Source: an uncultured Owenweeksia sp.
GTDB lineage: Bacteria; Bacteroidota; Bacteroidia; Flavobacteriales; Schleiferiaceae
DNA length: 64,000 nucleotides
NCBI GenBank assembly: GCA_937146805.1
Contig: CAKZRR010000003.1
Coordinates: forward strand, 6,332 to 70,331
Direction of reading: 5' to 3'
Shown here: piece after piece, positions 34 through 38,804 of the stretch
Position numbering within the stretch: the stretch's first letter is position 1
Layout of the letters: every line of letters begins with the position of its first letter
Position numbers and translations under genes: made by a program
The notes under the pieces: generated by a model
The model's database searches: none
Told to the model about the DNA's origin: nothing
Seen by the model: only the letters and a program-made list of their open reading frames with translations

Positions 34-681
34 ATGAAAAAAATTGTACTTGGAGCAGCAGCTCTTTTGCTTTCGTTTATTAGCTACGCACAACCAACTG
101 CGGGTAATTTAAATGTAACAGGAATATTGGCCTTTACCACCTCGGGGGGTGAAACCTCTGCTGGTGGAGTTACAGCAGACAACGCCAAAACCATGAACTT
201 CACATTCGCTCCTTCCATTGGTTATAATCTTTCGGATAATATGACGGCAGGACTTATTTTCGGTTTTGGAAGTAATAAAACCACTCAACCCGATAATGGA
301 AATGTTAGCGGGGCAGAAACTAAAAGCAGCTTTTTTGGAGCAGGTGTTTTCCTTAAGTATCATGTGCAGATGATTGAAAAATTAACCTTTTCCCCTCAGG
401 TAATTACCGGTTTCATTTCCAATAAAACTGAAAACACAAATGGAGGAACTACCGTAACCTCTCCCGAAGTAGGAACTTTTGCCTTAGGCATAATGCCAGG
501 CTTAACCTATGCCGCTTCTGAAAACTGGATGTTTGACTTTACAGCTGGATTTTTAGGTTTTACCACCTCCAATAGCAAAACACCTGGAAACCCAGGAACA
601 GAGGTGAAAACCAACAACTTTGGCTTAATGCTAAGCGGAGTAGCCATGAATATTGGCGTTACTTATAGCTTCGGTATTTAA
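34..681 (+). CDS. Outer-membrane beta-barrel (porin/OmpA-like) protein
   Basis: Signal peptide, alternating amphipathic beta-strands, terminal strand GVTYSFGI typical of small Bacteroidota barrels. Confidence 0.75.
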   Translation: MKKIVLGAAALLLSFISYAQPTAGNLNVTGILAFTTSGGETSAGGVTADNAKTMNFTFAPSIGYNLSDNMTAGLIFGFGSNKTTQPDNGNVSGAETKSSFFGAGVFLKYHVQMIEKLTFSPQVITGFISNKTENTNGGTTVTSPEVGTFALGIMPGLTYAASENWMFDFTAGFLGFTTSNSKTPGNPGTEVKTNNFGLMLSGVAMNIGVTYSFGI

Positions 682-8934: not shown

Positions 8935-11034
8935 ATGAATCTCCTTGAAACATCCATAGAATATCTAAAAGGTGTAGGACCCAAACGCGGCCAGCTTTTA
9001 AAAAAGGAATTAGGCCTTAGCAACTACTCTGATCTCCTTCATTTTTTTCCGTTTAGATATGTGGATAGGTCTCATTTTCATAAAATTAACGGACTTATAT
9101 CGGCTACTACAGAAGTACAAATAGTTGGAACCTTAGGAGTTATAAAAGAACAAGGTGCAGGTCCCAAAAAACGACTAACAGCACAATTTAGTGATGAAAC
9201 TGGCAGTGTTGAACTTATTTGGTTTAAAGGAGTTAAGTGGGTAAAGGATTCGTTAAAAATTGGTAGCACCTATGTTTTGTATGGCAAACCTTCCGTTTAT
9301 CAAAACCGCTTCAACTTTCCGCACCCCGAGCTTGAGCTACTCAACGATTTTAAAGCCAACCCCATTAATGGCTTACAACCTGTTTATCCCTCTACCGAAA
9401 GGTTAAGCAACCAAGGGCTAAACGGAAAAGCGATTGGCAAGTTGCTAAAAAACCTTTTGCCTCAGCTGCAAAACACTTTGCAGGAGTACTTACCCGATTA
9501 TCTTATAAAAAAGTACCGTCTTAAAGGTTGTCGCGAAGCATACAATCAAGTGCATTTTCCGGCTAATATTGAGGAACTCGAAAAAGCACAAAGGCGCTTA
9601 AAGTTTGATGAGTTTTTATTTCTGCAATTTGAGCTATTGCAACAAAAACAGTTGCATCGTGAAACCATAAAAGGTTTTGCCTTTAAAAACTTAGGCTCTT
9701 ATTTTAATGATTTTTACAAACAAGTATTGCCCTTTACCCTAACGGGTGCGCAACAGCGGGTACTTAAAGAAATTCGTAAAGATTTACGGCAAGGTATTCA
9801 CATGAACCGCTTGGTGCAAGGAGATGTGGGTAGTGGAAAAACCATTGTGGCTTTAATGGCAATGCTTATGGCGCTTGACAATAATTTTCAAGCCTGTTTG
9901 ATGGCTCCTACCGAGATTCTGGCGAACCAACATTTTAGTAGTTTAAAAGAACTTACCCAGCCCTTGGGAGTAGAAATTGCCCTTTTAACAGGTAGTACCA
10001 AATCTGCCGAAAGGCGAAAAATACACGAACAGCTAGAAAACGGTACCCTTAAAATTTTAATTGGTACCCACGCACTAATTGAGGACAAAGTAAAATTTAA
10101 AAACCTAGGCTTAGCCGTTGTAGATGAGCAGCATAAATTTGGTGTTGCACAGCGAGCCAGCCTTTGGAAAAAGAACAGTTTACCACCCCATATTTTGGTA
10201 ATGACCGCTACTCCCATTCCTCGAACTTTGGCTATGAGCGTATATGGTCATTTGGATATTTCGGTGATTGATGAATTGCCGCCCGGACGAAAAGAAATTG
10301 AAACACACCATAGGTACGACTCTAGCCGTTTGCAAGTTTTTGGTTTTATGAAGCAACAAATTGAACTTGGCAGGCAGGTTTATGTGGTGTACCCCTTGAT
10401 TGAAGAATCTGAAAAAATGGATTACAAGGACTTGATGGATGGATATGAAAGTATTGAACGAGCCTTTCCTAAACCCAACTGCCAAATAAGTATTGTACAT
10501 GGGCGAATGACAGCCGAGGCCAAAGAGATTGAAATGCAACGATTTGTAAAAGGGCAAACACAAATAATGGTGGCCACCACCGTAATTGAAGTAGGTGTAA
10601 ATGTGCCCAATGCCTCTATTATGGTAATTGAAAGTAGCGAACGCTTTGGATTGAGTCAATTACATCAACTACGCGGACGTGTAGGGCGTGGTGCCGAACA
10701 GAGTTATTGCATTTTAATGAGCAGCTATAAACTAAGCGCCAATGCCAAAACCCGATTAAAAACAATGGTAGAAACGAACGATGGCTTTAAAATATCAGAA
10801 GTTGACATGAAGTTACGAGGACCCGGAGACTTAATGGGCACAAGACAAAGCGGTGATTTAAATTTAAAATTGGCCAGCTTAGTATTAGATGGAGCTATTT
10901 TGGAGCAAGCCAGGCTATGCGTCCAAAAAATATTGAATAACGACCCTCAGTTGGCCTTAATGCCCCATCAGCCACTAAAACGTAAACTACAAGAAAAATT
11001 GGCCGATAAAACGCAATGGGGTAAAATTTCTTAA
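8935..11034 (+). CDS. recG: ATP-dependent DNA helicase RecG
   Basis: LKGVGPKR wedge start, QGDVGSGKT, DEQH, MTATPIPRT, LHQLRGRVGRG, RGPGD. Confidence 0.97.
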   Translation: MNLLETSIEYLKGVGPKRGQLLKKELGLSNYSDLLHFFPFRYVDRSHFHKINGLISATTEVQIVGTLGVIKEQGAGPKKRLTAQFSDETGSVELIWFKGVKWVKDSLKIGSTYVLYGKPSVYQNRFNFPHPELELLNDFKANPINGLQPVYPSTERLSNQGLNGKAIGKLLKNLLPQLQNTLQEYLPDYLIKKYRLKGCREAYNQVHFPANIEELEKAQRRLKFDEFLFLQFELLQQKQLHRETIKGFAFKNLGSYFNDFYKQVLPFTLTGAQQRVLKEIRKDLRQGIHMNRLVQGDVGSGKTIVALMAMLMALDNNFQACLMAPTEILANQHFSSLKELTQPLGVEIALLTGSTKSAERRKIHEQLENGTLKILIGTHALIEDKVKFKNLGLAVVDEQHKFGVAQRASLWKKNSLPPHILVMTATPIPRTLAMSVYGHLDISVIDELPPGRKEIETHHRYDSSRLQVFGFMKQQIELGRQVYVVYPLIEESEKMDYKDLMDGYESIERAFPKPNCQISIVHGRMTAEAKEIEMQRFVKGQTQIMVATTVIEVGVNVPNASIMVIESSERFGLSQLHQLRGRVGRGAEQSYCILMSSYKLSANAKTRLKTMVETNDGFKISEVDMKLRGPGDLMGTRQSGDLNLKLASLVLDGAILEQARLCVQKILNNDPQLALMPHQPLKRKLQEKLADKTQWGKIS

Positions 11035-22848: not shown

Positions 22849-25269
22849 TTATTTCAAAATCAACTTCTGGGTTAATTTAGTGCCGGCCTCAAAACTTACT
22901 TTAACAAAGTACAAGCCCGCAGGTATATTTTGGCAATCTAAAACAAGGTTTTTAACTATATCAATGGACACTTCACGCAGCACCTTTCCTTCTACATTTA
23001 CTAATTGCACTATTTCTGCTTTGTTTGTTAGTCCTCTTATTTCAACTTGGTCCTTAGCAGGATTAGGGAACAACACAAAACTTTGATTTACAATTTCTCC
23101 AAAACCTAAACCTTTATCAATACCCAAGGCCAGTGGCAACAGGTAATTACTGGCCGCTGTGGGCATATTTAAAGCAGTGCCTTCAAAAGTATTTAACACG
23201 GTAAAACCCATGTTAAAAGGGGTCGCAGGCAAACTAAAATTCTCGTAAACACTAAAAGCATAACCCGTATCCCCAGTAACGGATACCGTGTACTCATCGT
23301 TGGCATTTAAGGACACATTCATTTGCAAACTAACTAGTTCTGTAAAAGGTTTACCTAAGGTTAACACTTGGTGGTGAATTTCAGCTTGAGTCTTATCATG
23401 TATTTTTAGATTAAGCTCATAGCCTCCCGTTTTTCCAAACAAATCAACCAAACCGGGAATAGCTACGCTTTGCAACGTCACATTTTGATTAACCGTAAAC
23501 TGCACACCTGCACTACCCGTAAATATTACTGGGCTGTTTTGGTAATTGCCATTACCCATGGTTACTATAGCCAAATTAGCTCCATTAGGCACACCAATGG
23601 TATCACTTAGCTCCTTACAGTTTCCCTTACTAATACTTACTTGATAAACACCTCCACTAAATGGTGTAAGAGTATCGTAAGGATAGGCAAAGGGAACACC
23701 GTTGTAATACCATGTATGGTGCACTCCAAGGTTAGAGTTTGTTAAAACTAGCTGACCTCCTGTAAAGTTTAAAACAACTGGAGTCAAGGTGTCCATCATA
23801 ACAAATACCGAATCTTGGTAGCCCGGGGATTGAGAATCGGAGAGATAATAATACTGTGATTTCGTTACTACGGTGCTGGGGTTTGATTGTGTGCTATTAA
23901 AAGAGGCATCTGCAGATGTCCATTGAAAATTCCCACTTTTAGTCGTTCCACTAAATTGGACGCTATCGCCAACACAAGCTCTCAAGGTATCTCCATTGAT
24001 ATTAGCGGTTGGCACCACGCGTATCAAAAATGCCAAATCGGTATGTGCCGGAAAAGGGCAAACATCATTACTAAACTTCACATACAAAGCATGTCTTGAG
24101 TTTCCTGTTAAAACATGCTCTCCTCCAATTACCCATTTAAGTTGCACCGTGTTGGTAAGTGAAGTTGTATATCCAGTTTGTGGAGATATGGGATTTAATG
24201 TTGCCTTTACGCTGTAGTTACTAGACCCTAAAAAGGGTGCTGCAAATGCAGAACCTCTTGCCGAGGCAACAATATTCGCCAAAGTGGTATCCAGTCTCAT
24301 TTGACTGCTAGTAGCCGTAATATCTAAGGAAACGGTATCTCCTACACAGGCATCTATATAGTGTGTTTCACTATCTGTTTTAGTAATTGGATGGCTATTA
24401 TTAGCCACTAAAAAAGCGGGAGGCACTTGTTGGGTTATACTTCCTTTATACACAACGGCAAGATCTCTGTATACTTTTGATAGCAGCACACCTTTTCTCC
24501 ATTGTTGGATTTCAACGGCATACACATAACTGCCATTATTACCCGAGTTAATTCGTGTTTTAACAATACCAGTTTCATGATTAATAGTAGTTAACCCGTT
24601 ACTTGCATTGGTAGCCGAGTTCGGAAAGGGTTGCGAATAACTGTAACCACTGGAAAAGTTTACGGTTGTGGTCGCTCCATCTTTAGGTGTAGAGAAATCT
24701 ACATAAATAGAATCACTAGGGTTGTTGCTCATTGCACCCGTATTAAACGAAGCCGAATCGCTGGAAATAATATAACCGCTACTTTCTGAAAAATAAGGAG
24801 AAGGGTTCGTACATCCTCCAAAGTTTGTATACATAATAGAGCGGAGATAAAAAGCTCCGGTGGGGCCATTTCTGTTAGTACCCGATCGGCAACAATCAAA
24901 ATAACTAAACTCCCAACCTGCAGCAGGCGGTGTCCCAGATAGTACTATAGGACTACTGCGATAGGTGCCACGTCTTATAGCACCATTACCAGGAGTAGAC
25001 CAGCTACAGGCCACAGATCCAGGACCAACACAACTTGGAGAAATTTCTACACTACTTACTTGAGAGCAAACAATAACCCCTTGTGGGCCGGTAAGTGAAA
25101 CGGTAGATGGTGGGATTGCTGCGGGACCAGCACACTCAAAATATAAAACGGTTTGAAAGATATAACCTCCACTTGGTGTACACTCCCATGTAATTTCGCC
25201 ACCTAATAAGTGGGTAGCACTGGCAGCAAAAGAAGAAAGCATAATGGCTAAAGAAACGAGATACTTCAT
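22849..25269 (-). CDS. T9SS type-A-CTD secreted protein, array paralog 1
   Basis: Signal peptide, ATHLLGGEITWEC, DCCR motif, C-terminal FPNPAKD...GLYFVKV...KLILK. Confidence 0.85.
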   Translation of the reverse strand: MKYLVSLAIMLSSFAASATHLLGGEITWECTPSGGYIFQTVLYFECAGPAAIPPSTVSLTGPQGVIVCSQVSSVEISPSCVGPGSVACSWSTPGNGAIRRGTYRSSPIVLSGTPPAAGWEFSYFDCCRSGTNRNGPTGAFYLRSIMYTNFGGCTNPSPYFSESSGYIISSDSASFNTGAMSNNPSDSIYVDFSTPKDGATTTVNFSSGYSYSQPFPNSATNASNGLTTINHETGIVKTRINSGNNGSYVYAVEIQQWRKGVLLSKVYRDLAVVYKGSITQQVPPAFLVANNSHPITKTDSETHYIDACVGDTVSLDITATSSQMRLDTTLANIVASARGSAFAAPFLGSSNYSVKATLNPISPQTGYTTSLTNTVQLKWVIGGEHVLTGNSRHALYVKFSNDVCPFPAHTDLAFLIRVVPTANINGDTLRACVGDSVQFSGTTKSGNFQWTSADASFNSTQSNPSTVVTKSQYYYLSDSQSPGYQDSVFVMMDTLTPVVLNFTGGQLVLTNSNLGVHHTWYYNGVPFAYPYDTLTPFSGGVYQVSISKGNCKELSDTIGVPNGANLAIVTMGNGNYQNSPVIFTGSAGVQFTVNQNVTLQSVAIPGLVDLFGKTGGYELNLKIHDKTQAEIHHQVLTLGKPFTELVSLQMNVSLNANDEYTVSVTGDTGYAFSVYENFSLPATPFNMGFTVLNTFEGTALNMPTAASNYLLPLALGIDKGLGFGEIVNQSFVLFPNPAKDQVEIRGLTNKAEIVQLVNVEGKVLREVSIDIVKNLVLDCQNIPAGLYFVKVSFEAGTKLTQKLILK

Positions 25270-25403
25270 GGTATGGGTTTTTGGATTACAAACAATAGTA
25301 CGATTTTTCCGAAATAAAGAAACCTCTGGATTAGTTAACGATTGGTTCGGGAGAATTAACGGCTGTTTGAATTCATTCTATTCCAGGAGCAAGGGTGTAA
25401 AGT

Positions 25404-27827
25404 TTACTCTATCAAAAATTTATGAGAAACGGCTGCCCCATTGTGTAAATAAACCCGAACGAGATAAATCCCAGGCGGCACATTGGCACAGTTTAAAATT
25501 AAAGGTTTTGTAGTGGCCTGCACCGCCATACTTCTTAAAACCTCTCCGTTTACGTTTATTAATTCTACTTTCTCAGCAACACTAATCAAACCCCTTATCT
25601 CTACTCTATCTTTAGTAGGATTGGGGAATAAAGAGAACTCATACCCTTTTGGGTGTTTTACATTCAAACCCTTATTAGTACCCAAGGATATAGGAAGTAA
25701 ATAGTTACTAGTAGTGGTTGGCATGCTAAATGAAAATCCTTCCACCGCTCTAACTACCGTAAAGCCAATGTTAAAAGGAGTTGCAGGCAAGGTAAAGTTC
25801 TCAAAAATGCTAAACGCATAACCTGAATCTCCAGTAAGTGCTAGAGTGTAAACTTTACTTGCTACCAGCGAAAAATTTAGCGGTAGCCGAAGTAACTCCT
25901 TAAACGGAGCGGCTAGACTTACAGATTGATTGTAAACCTCAACCTGTAAATCGTCATAAATTTTAACATTTAAGTCATATTGATTTATTTGTCCATTTAA
26001 ATTTACCAAACCAGGAATGGTTAAACTCCTTAAGTCTATATTTTTATTAACCTTAAAGTCAATACCTAAACTACCAATTGAAGCAATTTCATTCCCTACA
26101 TACTGTCCGTTACCCATTGTAGTTACGGCTAAGTTTGTTCCATTTAAAAGTGCCAAAGTATCAGTAAATTTTCTGCATCCCCCTTTAACAACACTGGCCT
26201 GATACAAACCTCCGCTAAAACGAGATAAAGTATCATATGGATAAGCAAAAGGAATCTCATTGTAAAACCAAGTACGGCTGGCCACTAAATTAGGGTTTAC
26301 CATGGCCAGCTCCTTACCATTAAAACCCAAGGTAACGGGCAAAAGCGTATCCACCTCCACGTACACAACCTCTAAAAATCCGGGATTGTGCGGATCAGAA
26401 AGGTAATAATACTGTGAGCTATCCGCTCTAATTTTAGGATTTGGCATTTGACTGCTAAAAGTAGCGTCTGCCGATGTCCATAAGAAACTTCCACTCCGCG
26501 TAATACCGCTCAGCTCAACACTATCACCAAAACAGGCTCCAATAGTATCTCTACCTATACTTGGTGCCCCTGATACTTTTATCATAAAAACCATATTAGT
26601 TATAGCAGGATAAGGGCATACATCATTACTAAATTTTACATATAAAGCGTGCCTCTTATTGCCATTCAACACATGCTCTCTTCCAATTACCCATTTTAGG
26701 CGAACATTGTTGGATACAGAAGATGTCAAACTCATCTGAGGGCTTACGGGGGTAAGTGTAGCCTTTTGGCTATAGTTACTTGCTCCTAAAAAAGGCGCAT
26801 CAAACGCATACCCACGGCCAGTAGCGATAATATCTGCCAAAGTTGTATCTAGGCGCATCTGAGTACTTGTAGCCTCTATATCAATCAAAATGGTATCACC
26901 CATAGAAACATCTAAATTGTACGTTTCCTGATCCACCCTTGAAACAGCATGGCTGGAATTAACAATTTGAAAGCTCGGTACCACCTGCTGCGCTGCTGTG
27001 GCAGAATACATGGCAACATAATCTCTGTATATTCTAGACAACAAAACACTATTCTCCCATTGCTCAATAACAATCCCGTAGCAATAAAGACCTGAGGTTC
27101 CGGCATGTACATGGGTTTTAATAATACCAGTACTATGATTAATAGAAGTTAAACCATTACTAGCATTAGTATTGGTATTTGGAAATGGTTGTGAGTAACT
27201 AAAGTTTGGGCTAAAACCAACAGAACTAACTGAATTTATCCTAGGACTTGCGAAATCTATATATAGTGAATCTGTAGAATTATTACTAGCAGCACCAGTT
27301 GCTAGTGTTATAGAGTCTCCGGAAATAATATGACTAGCACTCTCAGCAAAATGAGGCGAATCCTTTTGACATTGAGACGAACTACCGTACATTACTGAGC
27401 GTAGATAAAAATTTCCAGCCGCACCATTCTCTAAACCAATCTGGCGGCAACATTCAACAAAGCTAAACTCCCAACCCAATGGAGGAGGTGTTCCACTAAG
27501 CGAAATTGGCGGGCTTCGGTAAATATAGCGCCTTATAGCACCCTTGGTTCTTGCGGTAGTACCACAAGAAACTGCCCCCGGGCCAGTGCAGCTTGGTGAA
27601 ATCTGAACACCTCCAATTCTAACACATGTTATATATCCCTGCGGCCAAGTAAGAACAAGTGATGGCGGAACTGGAGCGGAGCCCGTCCCACATTCTTGAT
27701 ACAAAACTGTTTCAAAAATAAAAGACCCGTTCGTGGTGCATTCCCAGGTAATTTCTCCCCCTACCAAATGACCTGCCCTAGTGCTAAAAAAGGATAATAA
27801 AGCTACAATAATAGTTAGGTTCCTCAT
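25404..27827 (-). CDS. T9SS type-A-CTD secreted protein, array paralog 2
   Basis: HLVGGEITWEC, ECCR, FPNPTKD...GIYLVRV...KFLIE; colinear with paralog 1. Confidence 0.85.
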   Translation of the reverse strand: MRNLTIIVALLSFFSTRAGHLVGGEITWECTTNGSFIFETVLYQECGTGSAPVPPSLVLTWPQGYITCVRIGGVQISPSCTGPGAVSCGTTARTKGAIRRYIYRSPPISLSGTPPPLGWEFSFVECCRQIGLENGAAGNFYLRSVMYGSSSQCQKDSPHFAESASHIISGDSITLATGAASNNSTDSLYIDFASPRINSVSSVGFSPNFSYSQPFPNTNTNASNGLTSINHSTGIIKTHVHAGTSGLYCYGIVIEQWENSVLLSRIYRDYVAMYSATAAQQVVPSFQIVNSSHAVSRVDQETYNLDVSMGDTILIDIEATSTQMRLDTTLADIIATGRGYAFDAPFLGASNYSQKATLTPVSPQMSLTSSVSNNVRLKWVIGREHVLNGNKRHALYVKFSNDVCPYPAITNMVFMIKVSGAPSIGRDTIGACFGDSVELSGITRSGSFLWTSADATFSSQMPNPKIRADSSQYYYLSDPHNPGFLEVVYVEVDTLLPVTLGFNGKELAMVNPNLVASRTWFYNEIPFAYPYDTLSRFSGGLYQASVVKGGCRKFTDTLALLNGTNLAVTTMGNGQYVGNEIASIGSLGIDFKVNKNIDLRSLTIPGLVNLNGQINQYDLNVKIYDDLQVEVYNQSVSLAAPFKELLRLPLNFSLVASKVYTLALTGDSGYAFSIFENFTLPATPFNIGFTVVRAVEGFSFSMPTTTSNYLLPISLGTNKGLNVKHPKGYEFSLFPNPTKDRVEIRGLISVAEKVELINVNGEVLRSMAVQATTKPLILNCANVPPGIYLVRVYLHNGAAVSHKFLIE

Positions 27828-27938
27828 AAGGCTCGTTTATATTAAATGAACTAAATACTTTTATGTTTTCCTCTTTATCCAAAGTTGGTCAAATAAAGCT
27901 GGCTAACCTTATCCGTCAAAAACAATCGCCCGTTAAAA

Positions 27939-30368
27939 TTACTCTATCAAAAGTTTACGAGATACGGTTGCTCCTTTGCTTAAATGAACCCGAACCATAT
28001 AAACCCCAGACGGTACATTGGTACAGTTTAAAATTAAAGGCTTAGTGTTGGCCGTTACAACCATGCTACTTATTACCTGACCATTTACATTTACTAATTC
28101 TACTTTTTCCGCTTCATTGCTTAGTCCCACCAACTGCACCTCTGCTTTGGTAGGATTTGGAAACAAACGGAATACACTATAATCCATTTTATTTATCTCC
28201 ATACCTTTATCTATACCAAGCGCAAGAGGCAGCATAAAATTACTTTTTTGAATAGGTATTCCCAAAGGCAAACCTTCTGTAGCCTTCAAAACGGTAAAAC
28301 CTATATTAAAAGGAGTTGCCGGTAAACTAAAATTCTCATAAACACTAAAAGCATAACCCGAATCACCTGTAAGAGCAATAGTATATGTACTATTCGCTTG
28401 AAGCGGCACGTTGGCTCTAATCCTAAACAACTCCCTAAAGGGACTCCCTACACCCACGGTTTGATTGTGCACTTCCAGCTGTAAATGATTATAAATCTTT
28501 AAGTTCAAATTATAATCGTTCGCCTGTCCGTTCAAATTTATCAAACCCGGAATGGTTAAACTTGTAAGGTTGACGTTTTTATTAACTCTAAACTGGATAC
28601 CTATACTCCCAAGTGCTCTAACTGGCTCTTTTCTATAATTACCATTGCCTATGGTTGTAACCGCCAAATTTGCCCCATTCAAGAGTCCTAAAGTATCCGT
28701 AAAATCTTTGCACCTTCCTTTTACAATACTTGCTTGATATAAACCTCCACTAAAGGAGGTTAAGGTATCGTAAGGATATGCAAAGGGAATTTCATTGTAA
28801 AACCATGTGCGTATAACATTTATATTGTTATTTGATATTTGCAATGCACCACCATTACTGCTTAAACTAATGGGTGAAATCGTATCTACCTCAACATACA
28901 CTGAGTCAATAAAACCTGGATTTTGAGGATCCGAAAGAAAGTAATATTGCGAGTTAGTCGCCACTAACTCTGGTGCCGCCAGCTGGCTGCTCAATGTTGC
29001 GTCTGCCGATGTCCATTGAAAATTGCCGCTTTTAGTGCTTCCCATTAATTTAATACTATCATATCGACACACTCTTAAAGAATCATCTTTTGCTTTTACA
29101 ATTGATTTCACCCGAACCAAAAAGGCCTTATTGTTTCTAGCTGGAAAAGGGCAAATATCATTGCGCAGTTTAACGTTAATGTAATGAGGTTGCGAACCAC
29201 GATGTGTATGTTCCGCACCCGTTACCCAATTAAACCTTACCCTATTAATAAAGGCGTTTGTGTAATTTGCCTGAGGTGCAATTGGGATTAATAAAGCCTG
29301 TGATAAATATCCACTTACACCTCCAAAAGGAGTGTCTAATACAAGCCCATTAGCTTCAAAAGTCATTTCAGTGATGGTGAAGTCAGGGCGAGATTGTGTC
29401 GTTGAAGCTTCTAAATTAAAGGTGAGTGTATCACCTTCATACAAATCAAAAAAATACGTATTTGGGTCAGGATTACTAAAGGAATAATTATTATTAGTTA
29501 CCTGAAAGTAAATTGGTTGCTGAGCTGTAGAGTATCCATAAATAGCAACATTATCCTTAAATATTTTAGATAGCAATTTACCATCACGCCATTGCTGCAC
29601 TTCTACACAATACATATAATTACCATTAACAGCCGTATCAAAATTTGTTGTAATAATGCCTGTTTGATGATTGATAGTGGTCAGTCCATTTACCGAATCA
29701 CTCATTGTATTTGGAAAAGGCTGAGTATAAGTATAACCCGCCCCTAAAGTTGTTAGTACTAGTGAATCATCCCACGAATTAGCAAAGTCAATATAAAGAG
29801 AATCAGAAGAATTTTTTCTGCTTACATCAATGGTAAATGTTGCCGAATCTCCCGCCATTAAATAAATCGGGTTTTCATTGAAGGAAGGGGACGAGTTATT
29901 ACAAATGCCGTTACCGCTATTGTACATGAGGGCCCTTAAATAAGTATTGTTACTCGTTCCTGATATATTTACTACTGAGGATGGCTTGCAACATTGTTGG
30001 TAACTAAATTGCCACCCAGCAGCAGGTGGTGAACCATTTAGTGTAATTGGAACACTCTTGTAAAGATGACGCGCTACCGCTCCAGTACCTTTTGGTGATA
30101 CAATGCAGGCTAAACCCGTTCCCCAACAACTTGGAGAAACATCACTTGGTGTACCCACCAAACTACAATTGATAATACCCTGCGGACCCGAAACATCTAC
30201 ATTGGCAGGTAAACCAGCCCCCCCAATACCACACTCTCTGTATAAAGCTACATTAAAAACATACTTTCCCGATGCCGTGCACTCCCAGGTAATTTCGCCA
30301 CCAAAGAAATGCGTGGCTTGCACAAAAAATGACGAAAAAACAATAATTACAGTAATGCAGTACTTCAT
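27939..30368 (-). CDS. T9SS type-A-CTD secreted protein, array paralog 3
   Basis: ATHFFGGEITWEC, QCCK, FPNPTKA...GVYMVRV...KLLIE. Confidence 0.85.
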   Translation of the reverse strand: MKYCITVIIVFSSFFVQATHFFGGEITWECTASGKYVFNVALYRECGIGGAGLPANVDVSGPQGIINCSLVGTPSDVSPSCWGTGLACIVSPKGTGAVARHLYKSVPITLNGSPPAAGWQFSYQQCCKPSSVVNISGTSNNTYLRALMYNSGNGICNNSSPSFNENPIYLMAGDSATFTIDVSRKNSSDSLYIDFANSWDDSLVLTTLGAGYTYTQPFPNTMSDSVNGLTTINHQTGIITTNFDTAVNGNYMYCVEVQQWRDGKLLSKIFKDNVAIYGYSTAQQPIYFQVTNNNYSFSNPDPNTYFFDLYEGDTLTFNLEASTTQSRPDFTITEMTFEANGLVLDTPFGGVSGYLSQALLIPIAPQANYTNAFINRVRFNWVTGAEHTHRGSQPHYINVKLRNDICPFPARNNKAFLVRVKSIVKAKDDSLRVCRYDSIKLMGSTKSGNFQWTSADATLSSQLAAPELVATNSQYYFLSDPQNPGFIDSVYVEVDTISPISLSSNGGALQISNNNINVIRTWFYNEIPFAYPYDTLTSFSGGLYQASIVKGRCKDFTDTLGLLNGANLAVTTIGNGNYRKEPVRALGSIGIQFRVNKNVNLTSLTIPGLINLNGQANDYNLNLKIYNHLQLEVHNQTVGVGSPFRELFRIRANVPLQANSTYTIALTGDSGYAFSVYENFSLPATPFNIGFTVLKATEGLPLGIPIQKSNFMLPLALGIDKGMEINKMDYSVFRLFPNPTKAEVQLVGLSNEAEKVELVNVNGQVISSMVVTANTKPLILNCTNVPSGVYMVRVHLSKGATVSRKLLIE

Positions 30369-30379
30369 ATGATTAAAAT

Positions 30380-32815
30380 TTACTCTATCAAAAGTTTACC
30401 AGAAATAGCAGCTCCTTTGCTTAAATAAACCCGAACCATATAAACCCCAGGCGGAACATTGGTACAGTTTAAAATTAAAGGCTTTGTAGTGGCCGTTATA
30501 ACCATACTTCTTATTACCTGGCCATTTACATTTACCAATTCTACTTTTTCGGCTTCATGGGTTAGTCCAGCTATTTCTAATTGATCTTTAGCAGGATTTG
30601 GGAATATACGTAAACCTGATCTTAAATTTCCCTCAAGACCAACCCATTTCCATTGATCAACACCCAAGCCCAGCGGCAGCAAATAATTACTTGAAGAATC
30701 TGGGAAAATCAGCGCCCCTCCTTTTTTCGCTTCCAATACCGTAAAACCAACATTGTAAGGTGTAGCGGGTAAATTGAATTTTTCAAACACACTAAAAGCA
30801 TAGCCTGTATCACCAGTAAGAGCTATTGTATAGATTTCGTTTGCTACTAAAGGCACGTTGGTGCTTAGGTGAAACAACTCCGGAAAGGGGTTCCCTAAAG
30901 TTACTTGCTGGCTGTGAATTTCTGCTTCCTGCTGATCGTATATTTTTAGGGTTAAATCATAACCACCCGTTTTTCCATTTAAATTCATTAAACCTGGCAC
31001 ACTCACACTTTGCAGTGTTAAAGCTTGATTCATGGTAAAACTAACGCCTATGCTACCAGTAATACTAGCAGGACCATTTAAGTAATTACCATTACCGGTA
31101 CTTACCACTGCTAAGCTTGAATTATTACTAGTAAGGTTTATCACTGGACTTGAAAGGCTACAGTTACCGTTGGTGATTGAAACCTGATAACTACCCAAGC
31201 CAAAAGGCGTTAAAGTATCGTAGCTATAAGTAAAAGGAACCCCATTATAATACCAAGTTGGATTAGGCGTATTATTAGGGTCATTAAATACTATTTGAGT
31301 TCCATTAAACACAAACGATATAGGCGCTATCGTATCTGCATTAACGTAAACCGAATCCATAAAACCTGGGTACTGCGGATCGGTAAGGTAGTAATACTGC
31401 GAACTACCAGAGGCAAAGCTAGGGCTGGCCAATTGACTGCTAAACGTAGCATCTGCAGATGTCCATTGAAAATTACCGCTACGAGTACTTCCTCTTAACA
31501 AAATACTATCGCCTGTACAAACATTTAAAGTATCGTTATCAGTCCATACCGTGGGATTTACACTAACTAATACAGCCACGTTGCTACGTGCAGGAAACGG
31601 ACAAATGTCATTTTGCAGCTTTATATTGAATATATGCTTCACTTTACCACTTGTAACATGTTCGGAACCCAGCTTCCAATTAAACCTAACCTTGTTAGTA
31701 CCTACAGATGTATAGCCCGATTGTGGCGCTATAGGATATAAACTAGCTTTTTCTAGATAAGTACTTGGGCCTGCAAAAGGCGTATCTAAGGCAAAACCTC
31801 GTGCACTTACAACTATAGCGGCCAATGTAGTATCTGGGCGCATTTGTGTGGTAACCGACTCTAAATCAAAATTGAGCGTATCTCCCTCGTATAACTCAAA
31901 TTGAAAGGTTTCTCGATCGCTATTAGTAAAGGTATGGTTACTATTGGTTACCGAAAAAGCGGGTGCTATCTGTGGTGTATCAGGTATAAACACGGCTGCA
32001 CAATCGCGGTATATTTTAGACAGCAATACACCCGATCGCCATTGTTGTAACTCCACACAATAGGCATAACTTCCAGAAACACCATTAGCAATGTTTGTCT
32101 TTATTACTCCCGTTTCGTGGTTAATAGTTGTTACACCATTAGCACTCATACTACCGTTATTGGGAAAAGGTTGCGTATAACTGAACCCAGCTGCAAAAAT
32201 TATACTTGTGGAGCTATCCTCCATTGGTTGTGCAAAGTCAAAATAAACAGAATCAGATGGATGGCTAATTGCTCCCGAACTAAAGGTAGCCGAATCTCCG
32301 CTCATTAGATAAGTTGCGTTTTGGACAAAAACAGGTGATTCATCATTACACAAACCCGAAACATTCGAATACATTATTGATCTCAAATGAAAAGGATCTC
32401 CATTTCTTAGCAAATTTCTCACTGTTGATGGTCGGCAACATAGATTCCAGCTAAACTCCCATCCCCTACTTGGTGGGGTTCCTGTTAACGAAATTGGCGT
32501 GCTTTGATATTTTTGACGTAACACCGCACCGGTCCCACTAGGAGATGCTAAACATGCAATATTACTACCTAGGCAATTTGGCGAAATATCTAGGGCAGTA
32601 CCTACTTTATTACAGGTAATTGTGCCTTGCGGCCCCAAAACACTCAGAACATTTGGAAGCGATGCGGTATTAACCCCACACTCTTTATAAAGCACTACAT
32701 TAAACACGTATTGCCCCGAAGGTGTGCACTCCCATGTAATTTCACCCCCTAAAAGGTGGGTGGCCTTGGCAGTAAAACAGGATATTAAAATAGCGAGGGT
32801 GATAAGGTATTTCAT
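30380..32815 (-). CDS. T9SS type-A-CTD secreted protein, array paralog 4
   Basis: ATHLLGGEITWEC, LCCR, FPNPAKD...GVYMVRV...KLLIE. Confidence 0.85.
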   Translation of the reverse strand: MKYLITLAILISCFTAKATHLLGGEITWECTPSGQYVFNVVLYKECGVNTASLPNVLSVLGPQGTITCNKVGTALDISPNCLGSNIACLASPSGTGAVLRQKYQSTPISLTGTPPSRGWEFSWNLCCRPSTVRNLLRNGDPFHLRSIMYSNVSGLCNDESPVFVQNATYLMSGDSATFSSGAISHPSDSVYFDFAQPMEDSSTSIIFAAGFSYTQPFPNNGSMSANGVTTINHETGVIKTNIANGVSGSYAYCVELQQWRSGVLLSKIYRDCAAVFIPDTPQIAPAFSVTNSNHTFTNSDRETFQFELYEGDTLNFDLESVTTQMRPDTTLAAIVVSARGFALDTPFAGPSTYLEKASLYPIAPQSGYTSVGTNKVRFNWKLGSEHVTSGKVKHIFNIKLQNDICPFPARSNVAVLVSVNPTVWTDNDTLNVCTGDSILLRGSTRSGNFQWTSADATFSSQLASPSFASGSSQYYYLTDPQYPGFMDSVYVNADTIAPISFVFNGTQIVFNDPNNTPNPTWYYNGVPFTYSYDTLTPFGLGSYQVSITNGNCSLSSPVINLTSNNSSLAVVSTGNGNYLNGPASITGSIGVSFTMNQALTLQSVSVPGLMNLNGKTGGYDLTLKIYDQQEAEIHSQQVTLGNPFPELFHLSTNVPLVANEIYTIALTGDTGYAFSVFEKFNLPATPYNVGFTVLEAKKGGALIFPDSSSNYLLPLGLGVDQWKWVGLEGNLRSGLRIFPNPAKDQLEIAGLTHEAEKVELVNVNGQVIRSMVITATTKPLILNCTNVPPGVYMVRVYLSKGAAISGKLLIE

Positions 32816-32911
32816 GGTAAATAGGATTTACGAATTCTATTTACAATAATACGAAAATTCCGAAATACACCGCTTACTCATCATTGGCGGGGCAGTTTAA
32901 TGCAGGTAATA

Positions 32912-33055
32912 TCAATATATTAGAATGGGGTCCGCCAAAAAAACCTGCCATACCGCCTCACTGGTTTTTCCAAACTTTTTAGGAGCTTGCACCAATATAA
33001 TGTCGGCTTCAAATTTGGGTCTATCAGTAGCAGTGGCTACAGGCCCCAGCATACC
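32912..33055 (-). pseudogene. 5'-truncated remnant of the gene at 35493-35993 (last 47 codons)
   Basis: Hand translation GMLGPVATATDRPKFEADIILVQAPKKFGKTSEAVWQVFLADPILIY* vs GVLGHVATAGDRPKFEADVILVKAPKKFGKLSEPVWQVFLTNPVLRY* (36/47 identical, no indel); TAA in frame immediately upstream. Confidence 0.88.
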
Positions 33056-35492: not shown

Positions 35493-35993
35493 CTAATACC
35501 TTAAAACTGGATTCGTCAAAAAAACTTGCCAAACGGGCTCGCTTAGTTTTCCAAACTTTTTTGGGGCTTTTACCAGAATAACATCGGCCTCAAATTTGGG
35601 TCTGTCTCCCGCAGTAGCTACATGGCCTAAAACACCTTTCTTTTTAGTAAATACAATTTCAACGGGCGCTCCGCTTTTACTTTGCATTACACTGCGCACC
35701 AAGGTAACGATAGAATCAGTATTAAGCGATTCATTGGGTTTTATATAAAAAAGCTCTATTACCTTGGTTTCTACATAGCGTTGGTTAGATACATTACCCG
35801 AATTACTATAATGCACCTGCGTAAAATCAACCAAACTATACGCCTTTTGAATACCCGCTTCAATAAAGGCAGCACTATCTAAAGCGCTTAAGCTACGCTT
35901 TACAAAACGTTTTTCCATTACCTCATAACTGCTTTGGCTTACAGCACTTTTGCCAAAGCTTAAGGCCAATAGTAAAATCCATAGTTTATTCAT
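35493..35993 (-). CDS. Secreted hypothetical protein
   Basis: Signal peptide MNKLWILLLALSFGKSAVS; ATG overlaps the stop of the upstream gene (ATGAATAA); a homologous remnant exists at 32912. Confidence 0.75.
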   Translation of the reverse strand: MNKLWILLLALSFGKSAVSQSSYEVMEKRFVKRSLSALDSAAFIEAGIQKAYSLVDFTQVHYSNSGNVSNQRYVETKVIELFYIKPNESLNTDSIVTLVRSVMQSKSGAPVEIVFTKKKGVLGHVATAGDRPKFEADVILVKAPKKFGKLSEPVWQVFLTNPVLRY

Positions 35994-36894
35994 TTTCATA
36001 ATCTTCTGTTTTTTGCACAAATCGAAGTCTATAGATTTTCCCTTCCTGATATTGGATATCCTGAATTTCTAAATTTTTGAGACTATTTACAGGCAGTATT
36101 AGTCGGTCTATAAATTCGTGCTTGTTCAACATTTCAATTCCTTGATGCTTTGGGTGGCTCTGAAAAATTTTAGAGTCGTCATGAATGGCTTCTTCCAATT
36201 GCATCCTTCTCTTTTCCCAATTATCCGATTGGGCTCTCGAAAAATAATTGAGCATCAGGGCATAATCATCTGGCCAAAGCTCTACCCACACCGTGTCACT
36301 TTTACTTTTATCTAAAGCCATTGAAAAAGGCTTATAATACGCCCCATCAATTTGTAGTGTATCTAGTTGATTGACCTTTAATTGCAAAGCCCCTCCCTTT
36401 ACAACGGTTCTGCTTTTGGCTGCTGTAAAAGTCAATGTCTTTAAATCTATTAGTTGGTGCGTATAAGCATCCTTAAATACCATTACTGTATAATTAGCAC
36501 GGCTGTTCCACCAAAAAACAGCCAACAATAAAACCAATACGGGTAGCAGCAACCAGGCTACTTTTACCTTGGCCTTTGGTTTATTTTCGGTTGGTTTTAC
36601 TTGATTTTTAAATTTAAAATCATCCCAGTTTTTATATCCGCAATAGCGGCTCAATAAATTAAGCACATCTACCCGTGGCATTTTTTCACTTTGATTTTTA
36701 AAATGGAGGTACACCCATTTTTCACTTACCGTGCTTTGGCAGCTTTGCTCTAAATCAATTTGAAAATTATGAATATCGGCTATAGACCATTCTTTAAAAT
36801 CTTTTCTGATTTCAAGCTTGGTTTCAACCCTTATTCTCAACTTTTTTTTGAGTTGATTGAAATAAATACGCTCTGTAGTTTTAGTGGAATCCAA
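35986..36894 (-). CDS. Putative membrane-anchored regulator: XRE-like HTH + TM + periplasmic domain
   Basis: N-terminal TVSEKWVYLHFK...MPRVDVLNLLSRYCGY (XRE-like pattern), Lys-rich linker, single TM VAWLLLPVLVLLLAVFWW; TTG start. Confidence 0.65.
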   Translation of the reverse strand: MDSTKTTERIYFNQLKKKLRIRVETKLEIRKDFKEWSIADIHNFQIDLEQSCQSTVSEKWVYLHFKNQSEKMPRVDVLNLLSRYCGYKNWDDFKFKNQVKPTENKPKAKVKVAWLLLPVLVLLLAVFWWNSRANYTVMVFKDAYTHQLIDLKTLTFTAAKSRTVVKGGALQLKVNQLDTLQIDGAYYKPFSMALDKSKSDTVWVELWPDDYALMLNYFSRAQSDNWEKRRMQLEEAIHDDSKIFQSHPKHQGIEMLNKHEFIDRLILPVNSLKNLEIQDIQYQEGKIYRLRFVQKTEDYENE

Positions 36895-36920
36895 AAGTAG
36901 AATATGAGCTAAAAGCCCCT

Positions 36921-36949
36921 TTGTAAAAGGCTTGTAAATTAAGTTACAA
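36921..36949. promoter_or_regulatory. Operator-like palindrome TTGTAA-N6-TTACAA plus an extra TTGTAAA half-site
   Basis: TTGTAA 36932-36937, TTACAA 36944-36949, second TTGTAAA 11 bp upstream (36921), in a divergent intergenic region. Confidence 0.5.
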
Positions 36950-37027
36950 TTGCAAAACTGCTAAGATGCAACCAAAATTTTACTCAACATACTTGTTTTG
37001 CTCCTGTAATCTTAAAAACAGAAAAAC

Positions 37028-38041
37028 ATGTTACATTCAAAATTAATTATGGGTTTAGGCTTGGTACTGGCAAGTTATTGGGCTCCAGGTCAGGCAAAAG
37101 GCAATTACGATTTTAGAAACGCCTTAAACAACTCATATGTACAAAGCAGCCAACAACCTATTCAAATGCCCGTGGCTATCGCCATGCCTAGTTTAGGCGA
37201 TCTCACCTTTTCAATTAAAGGCTTGTATAACGCTTCCGCAGATTCGTACTTAGCGATATTTACTTCCACGCAAGTGGGAAAAACCCAAAAAGAAACCAAC
37301 CGATTATTGCAAAACAAAATAGACTCTATTAGAATAAAAATGATGCAAAAAGGCCACGATGCCGAGTTGTTTGTAGATATGATTTCGTTTATACCCATGT
37401 ATGAGGTAAGCCCCGAGAAGAAGTTGTTTTCTAAGAAAACGTACAATGAAATTCCTGTGGGTTTTGAGCTTAAAAAAAATCTACACTTTAAGTATTCCGA
37501 CCCCAGAGAGCTGGAAGCATTGGTAACCCTTTGTGCCGAACAAGAAATTTACGACCTAGTACGCGTTGATTATTTTATTGATGATATAGAAGCCGTAAAA
37601 GCCGAAATGATTGCAAAGGCACAATCGCACATTAACCGAAAAATAAGCCGATACGGTAAACTAACCAACGAAACCTACACCGATAAAAACAGAATAATGA
37701 CCGAGGGTTTTGCCATACATTACCCCATTGAGCAATACCAAAGCTACCAAGCATACTGCACCAATGCTTTAACCTACAAACACGAAATCAACTCAACGGC
37801 TACCAAAATAACCTCTCAATTTTACATGCCCAAACTCAATAAAAACTATGATTTTGTGGTAAACGCCAGTATGCTAGAACCCGTAGTACAAGTGGAATAC
37901 GAAATAAAAATGCGACTCACTCAAAAACCCAAAGCACCAACCAAACCTGCCCCTAAGCCCAAAGAAATAATTAAAAAAGAAGTGGTGAAAGAGATTTTCT
38001 TGATTACACCCGATGCCCAAGTAAAGGAAATAAAACTGTAA
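37028..38041 (+). CDS. SIMPL (DUF541) domain protein
   Basis: Signal peptide; LYN..ADSYLAIF...Q, GFELKKNLHFKY, EIYDLVRVDYF, AEMIAKA pattern of Bacteroidota SIMPL proteins. Confidence 0.72.
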   Translation: MLHSKLIMGLGLVLASYWAPGQAKGNYDFRNALNNSYVQSSQQPIQMPVAIAMPSLGDLTFSIKGLYNASADSYLAIFTSTQVGKTQKETNRLLQNKIDSIRIKMMQKGHDAELFVDMISFIPMYEVSPEKKLFSKKTYNEIPVGFELKKNLHFKYSDPRELEALVTLCAEQEIYDLVRVDYFIDDIEAVKAEMIAKAQSHINRKISRYGKLTNETYTDKNRIMTEGFAIHYPIEQYQSYQAYCTNALTYKHEINSTATKITSQFYMPKLNKNYDFVVNASMLEPVVQVEYEIKMRLTQKPKAPTKPAPKPKEIIKKEVVKEIFLITPDAQVKEIKL

Positions 38042-38052
38042 TTGGGTAAAGG

Positions 38053-38083
38053 AAAGCCGTGGAGAAATTCACGGCTTTTTTTT
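38053..38083 (+). terminator. Rho-independent terminator between convergent genes
   Basis: AAAGCCGTG-gagaaatt-CACGGCTTT followed by a T-run. Confidence 0.85.
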
Positions 38084-38126
38084 ATAAACGAGCCTCTTGG
38101 TTTATCCTTTTTCAATCGCTGTTTAG

Positions 38127-38804
38127 CTAATTTAATGGATTAACTATTATCTCCTTAAAGCTTGGCAACTTAAATTGGGCATCATCCACTTTTTCTGACT
38201 TATAGTCAATTGCAACTTGAGTTGTTTTAGACATAAAACCACTTTGCTCAATTTTAAGAGGTAAACATTTTATCGCTTCCAATATTTGAGTCCAGTGGCC
38301 GTAAATATGTCCTTGATAAAACTCTGGATTCATTTTTAAGTAATCGCTGTTATACCAAAGCGTTACCTTCCCCATCTTAGATTTCACAACAATGCTTTTA
38401 CATGGAATACCTAAAATAGTATCCTTTTCTTCTGATGTAAGAATTTCCACAAAAGAATCTAAGTATTTCTGACTATCCACGGTAATCGCGGTATCTGAAT
38501 TTTTATGCCAAGAATAAAGCAAACTGTCCTTTGGATTAAACACTTGATAACCCGCCTCGTTTTTTGATTGAATTTCAGACATATAGTTGCTTTCCTTGTA
38601 GTAATACTTTTGAATAACACCTCCATTCCCTCCTAACCTTTCCTCAAGGATTTGCTGCCAAACGCTATCGGCCAACATCTCTGGATTAGGATTCTGAGCT
38701 GTCATTCGATAGGTTATTGAGCCCTCAAAATCTTGACAAATAGCTGTGAAACTGCACAAAACAAGTCCTAATATAACCAACTGCCTTCCTTTAATTTTTT
38801 TCAT
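38127..38804 (-). CDS. Secreted hypothetical protein (DUF4412/GLPGLI-like)
   Basis: Signal peptide; FEGSITY, DTILGIPCK...TLWY, PLKIE, F.LP tail. Confidence 0.65.
   Translation of the reverse strand: MKKIKGRQLVILGLVLCSFTAICQDFEGSITYRMTAQNPNPEMLADSVWQQILEERLGGNGGVIQKYYYKESNYMSEIQSKNEAGYQVFNPKDSLLYSWHKNSDTAITVDSQKYLDSFVEILTSEEKDTILGIPCKSIVVKSKMGKVTLWYNSDYLKMNPEFYQGHIYGHWTQILEAIKCLPLKIEQSGFMSKTTQVAIDYKSEKVDDAQFKLPSFKEIIVNPLN

Follow-up and report, generated by a model that had tools for sequence, protein, structure and literature searches.

Why do four neighbouring genes, all predicted to encode surface proteins of a single kind, resemble different members of their own group in different parts of their length? 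The question is raised by a tandem array in a 64,000-nt stretch of DNA (the window) from an uncultured Owenweeksia sp., which lies on contig C3 of a 3.16-Mb draft genome in 58 contigs. The four paralogs are encoded on the minus strand and are transcribed in the order P4 (30380..32815, 811 aa), P3 (27939..30368, 809 aa), P2 (25404..27827, 807 aa) and P1 (22849..25269, 806 aa), so that P4 is the first gene of the array and P1 the last paralog. P4 has a putative signal peptide, visible as a leader in the sequence, an all-beta body and a C-terminal sorting domain (CTD) of type A of the type IX secretion system (T9SS). A first-pass annotation made from the DNA alone had proposed that the four genes are recombination mosaics, a proposal that would be contradicted by one tree fitting all segments. 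One tree does not fit: different segments give different supported trees, with breakpoint permutations at p<0.001 and approximately unbiased (AU) tests at p=0.0002–0.001. Here, we show which blocks are shared by which copies and how old they are. The pattern most probably arose by general homologous (RecA-type) recombination between adjacent copies of a tandem expansion, followed by homogenization of the CTD.

Segmental relationships among the four paralogs

The four copies align nearly without indels, at 48–56% identity in protein and 57–62% in DNA. Quartet-informative amino-acid sites change their message along this alignment. In columns 37–502, 28 sites pair P1 with P2 and P3 with P4, 5 sites support P1+P3/P2+P4 and 4 support P1+P4/P2+P3; in columns 525–636 the corresponding counts are 0, 0 and 13. 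The best segmentation was equalled in only 0–1 of 1000 shuffles of the protein alignment and in 0–2 of 300 shuffles of the DNA. Maximum-likelihood trees of single segments (P4 residue numbering), built together with AU tests on 9–10 full-length outgroup homologs from other species of the genus, point the same way. Residues 20–300 group P3 with P4 (support 92/90) and reject P2+P3 (AU p=0.028), and residues 320–505 group P1 with P2 (100/99) and again reject P2+P3 (p=0.0002). For residues 520–640 the tree groups P2 with P3 (100/99), and the AU test rejects both P1+P2 (p=0.0005) and P3+P4 (p=0.001). Residues 655–735 leave the pairing unresolved with no alternative rejected, and the CTD tree groups P2, P3 and P4 (94–95/91), again with no alternative rejected at the protein level. 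The pairing of P1+P2 and P3+P4 in the N-terminal half, as first read by eye, is thus borne out, most firmly for P1+P2.

Two copies are chimeric. For P2, a maximum chi-square analysis gave one breakpoint, at columns 441/443, with a value that none of 1000 permutations reached: to its left 93 sites are P1-like and 26 P3-like, and to its right 65 are P3-like and 25 P1-like. P2 is accordingly P1-like up to about column 441 and P3-like from there to its end. P3 is P4-like outside residues ~502–633 and P2-like within them; in the triplet test, window 504–636 holds 38 P2-like and 6 P4-like sites, and the remainder 126 P4-like and 45 P2-like sites. The block common to P1 and P2, delimited by trees, AU tests and triplet tests, spans columns 310–441 (P2 26517..26912, minus strand; P1 counterpart 23959–24354), and the triplet test of P1 against P2 and P4 in window 310–407 gave 29 to 7. 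The block shared by P2 and P3, defined by quartet sites and the tree, spans columns 504–636 (P2 25935..26330, minus strand; P3 counterpart 28470–28865) and has a stem of 0.58 substitutions per site. From column ~759 on, the triplet tests group P4, P3 and P2 against P1 (27:2, 27:0 and 21:1).

The polarity of these likenesses can be read from the outgroups. A second pair, P1 and P4, had been described for the C-terminal half, and every peptide motif quoted in its favour, like all the others, is present in the copies to which it had been assigned; the open reading frame (ORF) ends also agree. The outgroups, however, carry the P1/P4 residues across 504–636 (WYYNG[VI]PF, KTGGYDLNLK, GDTGYAFS and VNQN), and a P1+P4 clade in this block is rejected (AU p=0.033). 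Because the outgroups have the same residues, the likeness of P1 and P4 in the C-terminal half is retained ancestral sequence and not the product of exchange; only P2 and P3 share a derived block there.

Every supported pairing joins physical neighbours, namely P1–P2, P2–P3 and P3–P4. The ends of the blocks coincide with the most conserved DNA of the genes, at FQWTSADA, at LPATPFN and at the start of the CTD, and the longest identical runs at block borders (nt 1351–1376 and nt 2018–2054) encode the first two of these motifs. This is expected if homology determines where an exchange resolves. Strict domain shuffling, which the first-pass annotation had offered alongside gene conversion, is not supported: the block end at ~636 falls inside the predicted last beta-sandwich (~582–720 in the AlphaFold2 model), and the borders are not clearly at domains, whose limits are approximate, as they come from the secondary structure of the model and its per-block confidence (pLDDT) only. 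Block ends at conserved DNA rather than at clear domain borders argue for homologous exchange. The other part of that suggestion, recombination without a dedicated recombinase, stands, since a Pfam scan found no recombinase, invertase, integrase or reverse transcriptase among the ten flanking ORFs, which encode glycosyltransferases, an O-antigen ligase, an aminotransferase and an FAD oxidase, the remainder lacking any Pfam match.

Homogenization of the sorting domain

The CTD behaves differently from the bodies. P2, P3 and P4 form a group apart from P1 here, as had been noticed, but 'nearly identical' overstated their likeness: they are 65–78% identical in protein and 73–86% in DNA, with P3 and P4 the closest (78% and 86%) and P2 at 65–72% to these two, compared with 46–49% in protein between P1 and the other three. 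Synonymous differences were estimated by the Nei–Gojobori method, and codon identity is the fraction of identical codons at identical residues. By these measures, and against a background codon identity of 0.48, the CTDs of P3 and P4 have a dS of 0.43 and a codon identity of 0.86 (p=6e-9), those of P2 and P4 0.59 and 0.69 (p=0.0016), and those of P2 and P3 0.85 and 0.60 (p=0.057). The homogenized tract corresponds to about the last 170 nt (~56 codons; columns 761–816), located on the minus strand at 30383..30550 in P4, 27942–28109 in P3 and 25407–25574 in P2; it ends at the stop-codon region and contains identical runs of 29 and 23 nt. The P1 CTD serves as an internal control, as it is saturated against all three others (proportion of synonymous differences, pS, 0.77–0.91), which argues against codon bias alone as the source of the identity.

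The same tendency recurs across the genome. An iterated hidden Markov model search found 172 ORFs with a type-A CTD, which form 32 adjacent same-strand pairs, 23 of them with homologous bodies. In 18 of these 23 pairs the CTD exceeds the body in synonymous codon identity, a figure to be taken as a tally and not as a test, for pairs inside one array are not independent. The excess is strong in about a dozen pairs from roughly ten arrays, as in the tandem pairs on contigs C17 (0.99 in the CTD, 0.51 in the body), C38 (0.96, 0.73), C33 (0.89, 0.58) and C24 (0.83, 0.47). The C17 pair (C17:208640-212652; L008/L005) consists of tandem 640–660-aa distant relatives of the array proteins, whose CTDs differ at 2 positions in ~215 nt, an identity that reaches as far as the stop codon and no further; the bodies are at a background of 50–70%. 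It is a very recent conversion confined to the CTD. Separately, two adjoining small CTD proteins at C24:36320-37894 have bodies that are 39% identical without a DNA-level match and CTDs that are 91% identical in DNA, possibly a sorting tag copied onto a strongly diverged neighbour.

The array in related genomes

The array sits at a syntenic site, between an aminotransferase gene and an FAD-oxidase gene, that is occupied by a single copy in G010 and by a pair in G006, compared with four here; G010 and G006 are Owenweeksia/Schleiferiaceae genomes, and the relatives' genomes are metagenome-assembled genomes (MAGs). Against the syntenic counterparts, the flanking proteins are 73–79% identical and the array proteins only 37–42%. 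A scan of the relatives' contigs with P4 alone gave nothing, and an alignment-based scan found the homologs; a homolog search with the P3 protein returned no close homolog outside its own genome, the next match being 30% identical. In most segment trees the four copies form one clade against the copies of other species (in 4 of 5 when the most divergent outgroup is left out), with weak support in residues 655–735. The array is a lineage-specific expansion, or the outcome of an earlier homogenization, of a fast-evolving gene.

The tandem pair of G006 contains a young tract of its own. Over 258 nt (L042:7213-7470 and 9645-9902, on Schleiferiaceae MAG contig CAVWUM010000001.1) the two genes are identical at 245 positions, with a core at 98–99%, against a background of 45–60%. 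The tract covers residues ~549–634, a segment within the block shared by P2 and P3, and this segment may be a recurrent site of conversion in the family. Together with the C17 pair, the G006 tract supports exchange between adjacent copies.

A wider reuse of the front of these proteins was also seen. Their N-terminal ~410 residues also head proteins of ~1150 aa in many genera of the family, for example on contigs C44 and C42 of the same genome and in L022 and L038 of relatives, so that this N-terminal module is combined with differing C-terminal architectures.

Age of the exchanges

Synonymous sites are saturated in every body segment of every pair (pS 0.66–0.81), including those that group together: pS is 0.79 for P1–P2 in 320–505 and 0.73 for P2–P3 in 520–640. 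The body blocks do not have lower synonymous divergence than their flanks; the CTD of P2–P4 has. Since saturation holds everywhere except in that CTD, the body mosaic is ancient, older than synonymous saturation, and only the CTD exchange among P2, P3 and P4 is younger. Outside the CTD, the longest stretch of DNA that any two copies have in common without a mismatch is 26 nt.

Proposed mechanism

The adjacency of the exchanging copies and the placement of borders at conserved DNA point to homologous recombination, presumably dependent on RecA. Duplications would first have given the pairs (P4,P3) and (P2,P1). An old exchange between the inner neighbours would then have left P2 and P3 with the common block ~504–636. 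This step could have been an unequal crossover that joined the front of P1 to the back of P3 and so made P2 at one stroke, which fits the single breakpoint of P2, or it could have been a conversion tract between P2 and P3. Finally, P4, P3 and P2 would have been homogenized by at least one later conversion that did not extend beyond the final ~170 nt of the CTD. How these events were ordered, and whether the exchange was a crossover or a conversion, are the more conjectural parts of the scheme.

Several observations weigh against recombination among neighbours as set out here. The first concerns the statistics: segment limits were picked after seeing the data, which the permutation tests allow for and the AU tests do not. 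The second is the rooted tree of the 504–636 block, which sets P1 beside P2+P3 (96/95); a single unequal crossover is therefore insufficient, and either extra events occurred or the rooting is skewed by a faster-evolving P4. The third is that monophyly of the four copies could reflect earlier concerted evolution and not recent duplication. The last is that the two body blocks carry no synonymous trace, so that DNA alone cannot separate common descent from parallel amino-acid change.

This last point leads to an alternative, namely that the bodies never recombined, that their pairings arose by convergence or parallel change of amino acids under a common functional constraint (if, say, residues 504–636 of P2 and of P3 bind one and the same partner) and that only the CTD was converted. 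Such convergence would explain why the signal of both body blocks lies in codon positions 1+2 only (for the 520–640 block 3:2:25, compared with 1:8:9 in position 3), and why codon identity at shared residues in the two grouped body pairs (0.41 and 0.49) is that of the background (0.476). Loss of synonymous signal is, however, expected for any event older than saturation. Convergence would also have to produce 13 of 13 informative sites and the long stem of P2+P3 in one contiguous block of 130 residues with sharp borders at conserved DNA, and to do so only between neighbours, and in the relative G006 the same segment was recently converted at ~99% DNA identity. We therefore regard convergence without body recombination as unlikely and retain exchange between adjacent copies.

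Present-day activity

The first-pass annotation had further proposed that the exchanges generate surface diversity, and had named strain comparison as a check. The population is also represented by a second metagenome assembly, made independently (ENA ERZ928254), which shows the same array with 5 differences over 22,436 nt, and no chimeric allele was seen in this single assembly comparison. All 5 single-nucleotide polymorphisms (SNPs) fall within 32417–32443 of P4 (27 nt; codons 125–133), with one L-to-N change. Micro-conversion from a paralog was considered for this cluster and rejected, since the variant matches neither a copy in the array nor any other site of the genome; a multi-nucleotide mutation or the import of a short patch may account for it.

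An active diversity generator, in which ongoing segment exchange among the copies or with incoming DNA makes chimeric surface proteins vary between cells, as in antigenic or phage-receptor variation, would be in keeping with the recent tracts in the family (the G006 and C17 pairs), with the fast divergence of the array proteins compared with their flanking proteins and with the cluster of SNPs in P4. Nevertheless, body DNA that is 57–62% identical, with runs of at most 26 nt, is a poor substrate for homologous exchange, and the synonymous sites are saturated. The two assemblies differ only in SNPs that correspond to no paralog, and silent cassettes are absent, all four genes being complete ORFs with a start codon, a leader and a CTD. 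Where exchange is younger, in the CTD, it has reduced the differences between the copies. We see no sign of a diversity generator at work and hold one to be very improbable; the claim that surface diversity is being generated now is not supported, in view of the saturated synonymous sites, the homogenizing CTD exchange and the second assembly without a chimera. An artefact of assembly or alignment, through collapsed repeats or misaligned variable regions, might be suspected in a 58-contig, metagenome-derived draft compared with MAGs, but it is scarcely credible given copies that align almost without indels, an identity of 57–62% that no assembler can collapse and an independent assembly that reproduces 22.4 kb with 5 differences.

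Protein architecture and secretion

All four proteins match Por_Secre_tail (PF18962) at 38.7–45.4 bits (cut-off 27), P4 at 40.9 bits, and TIGR04183 at 34.9–36.4 bits (cut-off 23). Outside the CTD they have no other Pfam match, and a sequence and profile search of the PDB matched the CTDs only. Each begins with a hydrophobic leader ending in A-x-A ahead of THLLGGE, as read from the sequence and not by a signal-peptide predictor; the AlphaFold2 model of P4 places a helix at residues 2–12 and is otherwise all-beta (pLDDT 66). Foldseek searches with this model returned only generic strings of immunoglobulin (Ig)/cadherin-like domains, with Aureispira GhpA as the best match. The genome encodes T9SS machinery, with matches above the respective cut-offs for SprA (2587 bits) and GldK (568 bits). 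On the strength of the CTD matches, the leader, the all-beta model, the Ig/cadherin-like structural matches and the presence of SprA and GldK, P1–P4 are best read as predicted T9SS-exported surface proteins built of multiple beta-sandwiches, and they are probably adhesins.

Upstream regions and neighbouring genes

P1 and P4 do share a feature in front of their coding sequences. The motif TATTTCGGAANNNTCGTANTATTG has exactly two copies in the 3.16-Mb genome, one ahead of P4 and one ahead of P1, in the interval 24–52 nt from the start codon: the first lies at 32844..32867, on the minus strand, 52 to 29 nt before the ATG of P4, and the other at 25293..25316, also on the minus strand, 47 to 24 nt before that of P1. 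The 5' regions of the two genes align over ~55 nt, and the motif was not found ahead of homologs in other species. The upstream part of the pairing noticed earlier is thus confirmed, and its leader part is only suggestive: of the 12 informative sites that fall within columns 1–36, 11 join P1 to P4 and not to P2 (p=0.069 by permutation).

The spacing of the genes bears on this motif. Only 11 nt separate the stop of P4 from the start of P3, which is probably co-transcribed with it; the gap upstream of P2 is 111 nt and that upstream of P1 134 nt, and the P1 stop is followed after 5 nt by the start of P0005. P4–P3 and P1–P0005 appear to be transcription units headed by P4 and P1, and for this reason the motif would most simply be a putative common promoter or operator kept by selection. 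A scan for sigma-70 promoters and terminators was uninformative, with counts equal to those in shuffled sequence.

The array is bracketed by two paralogs with a T9SS type-B (CHU_C) CTD, both with IgGFc-binding-like and PKD domains. P0005 (20567..22843, minus strand), directly downstream of P1, was identified by Pfam and NCBIfam; P0006 (33154..35445, plus strand), identified by Pfam, is 40% identical to it and is divergently oriented from P4. Between P0006 and the FAD-oxidase gene lie four ORFs of 175, 302, 337 and 225 aa (window 35493–38804) without a Pfam match, and neither of the two relatives examined showed them at its syntenic site. Upstream of P4, a 144-nt stretch (32912–33055) repeats the 3' end of the gene for the 175-aa protein (35493–36020) in diverged form and terminates in a stop; it is identical to 35493–35636 at 105 of 144 nt and 36 of 47 aa. 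As these two copies stand on either side of P0006, they suggest that P0006 was inserted between them.

Discussion

The array is a case of interlocus gene conversion or unequal crossover in a predicted surface-protein family, that is, of ordinary gene-family evolution. The general process, gene conversion between loci with concerted evolution of multigene families in bacteria, is said to have been reviewed by Santoyo and Romero in FEMS Microbiol Rev in 2005. The array resembles such conversion in its segment-wise incongruence, its tracts bounded by conserved sequence, its nearby copies and the lack of a dedicated enzyme; it departs from the typical case in that most tracts predate synonymous saturation and the younger ones concentrate on the secretion-sorting domain.

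Other systems share some of these properties. In Neisseria pilE/pilS, Borrelia vlsE and Mycoplasma genitalium mgpB/MgPar, one expression site is served by silent partial cassettes with high-identity flanks. Surface genes are altered by segmental, non-reciprocal copying in these systems as in the array, but the array consists of four complete, separately translatable genes, with no high-identity flanks and no strain variants seen. The babA/babB/babC genes of Helicobacter pylori are dispersed adhesin paralogs with long, near-identical 3' regions and measurable conversion rates during infection. They too are chimeras that combine variable N-terminal parts with homogenized 3' parts, in the bab genes the work of RecA-dependent conversion; the array bodies, unlike bab, are 57–62% identical and show no current exchange. 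A shufflon or a diversity-generating retroelement is set apart by the absence of an invertase, integrase or reverse transcriptase among the ten flanking ORFs. For the RgpA, Kgp and HagA proteins of Porphyromonas gingivalis, Dashper et al. (2017; PMC5266723) proposed that surface diversity stems from domain rearrangement and gene conversion. These proteins are also T9SS type-A cargo whose C-terminal modules became common to paralogs through recombination (PMC5266723). Their genes, however, are unlinked and their variants differ by strain, whereas the array is tandem and showed no strain variation in one comparison, and its body domains, which have no Pfam match, are unrelated to gingipain or CAD domains.

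The genome-wide excess of CTD homogenization in tandem pairs of cargo genes offers a modest generalization that can be tested, on which no paper was found in the literature searched with a limited set of terms. A doubtful extension of it is that selection has made the CTD a recombination handle, and that concerted evolution focused on the CTD is a general, selected property of arrays of T9SS cargo and not a by-product. If it were true, the CTD, as the best-conserved DNA of every cargo gene, would repeatedly seed conversion between neighbouring cargo genes, and selection may favour tags that stay matched among co-located cargo, or matched to a common recognition and attachment step.

A caution also follows for similar loci: mosaic paralogs should not be taken for active variation systems, and in this case dating by synonymous sites revealed an ancient body mosaic. 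The locus illustrates the way in which a family of fast-evolving, predicted surface proteins is built up and maintained in an environmental Flavobacteriales genome. Copy number grows at one site, neighbours swap blocks, the export tag is kept alike and the bodies drift.

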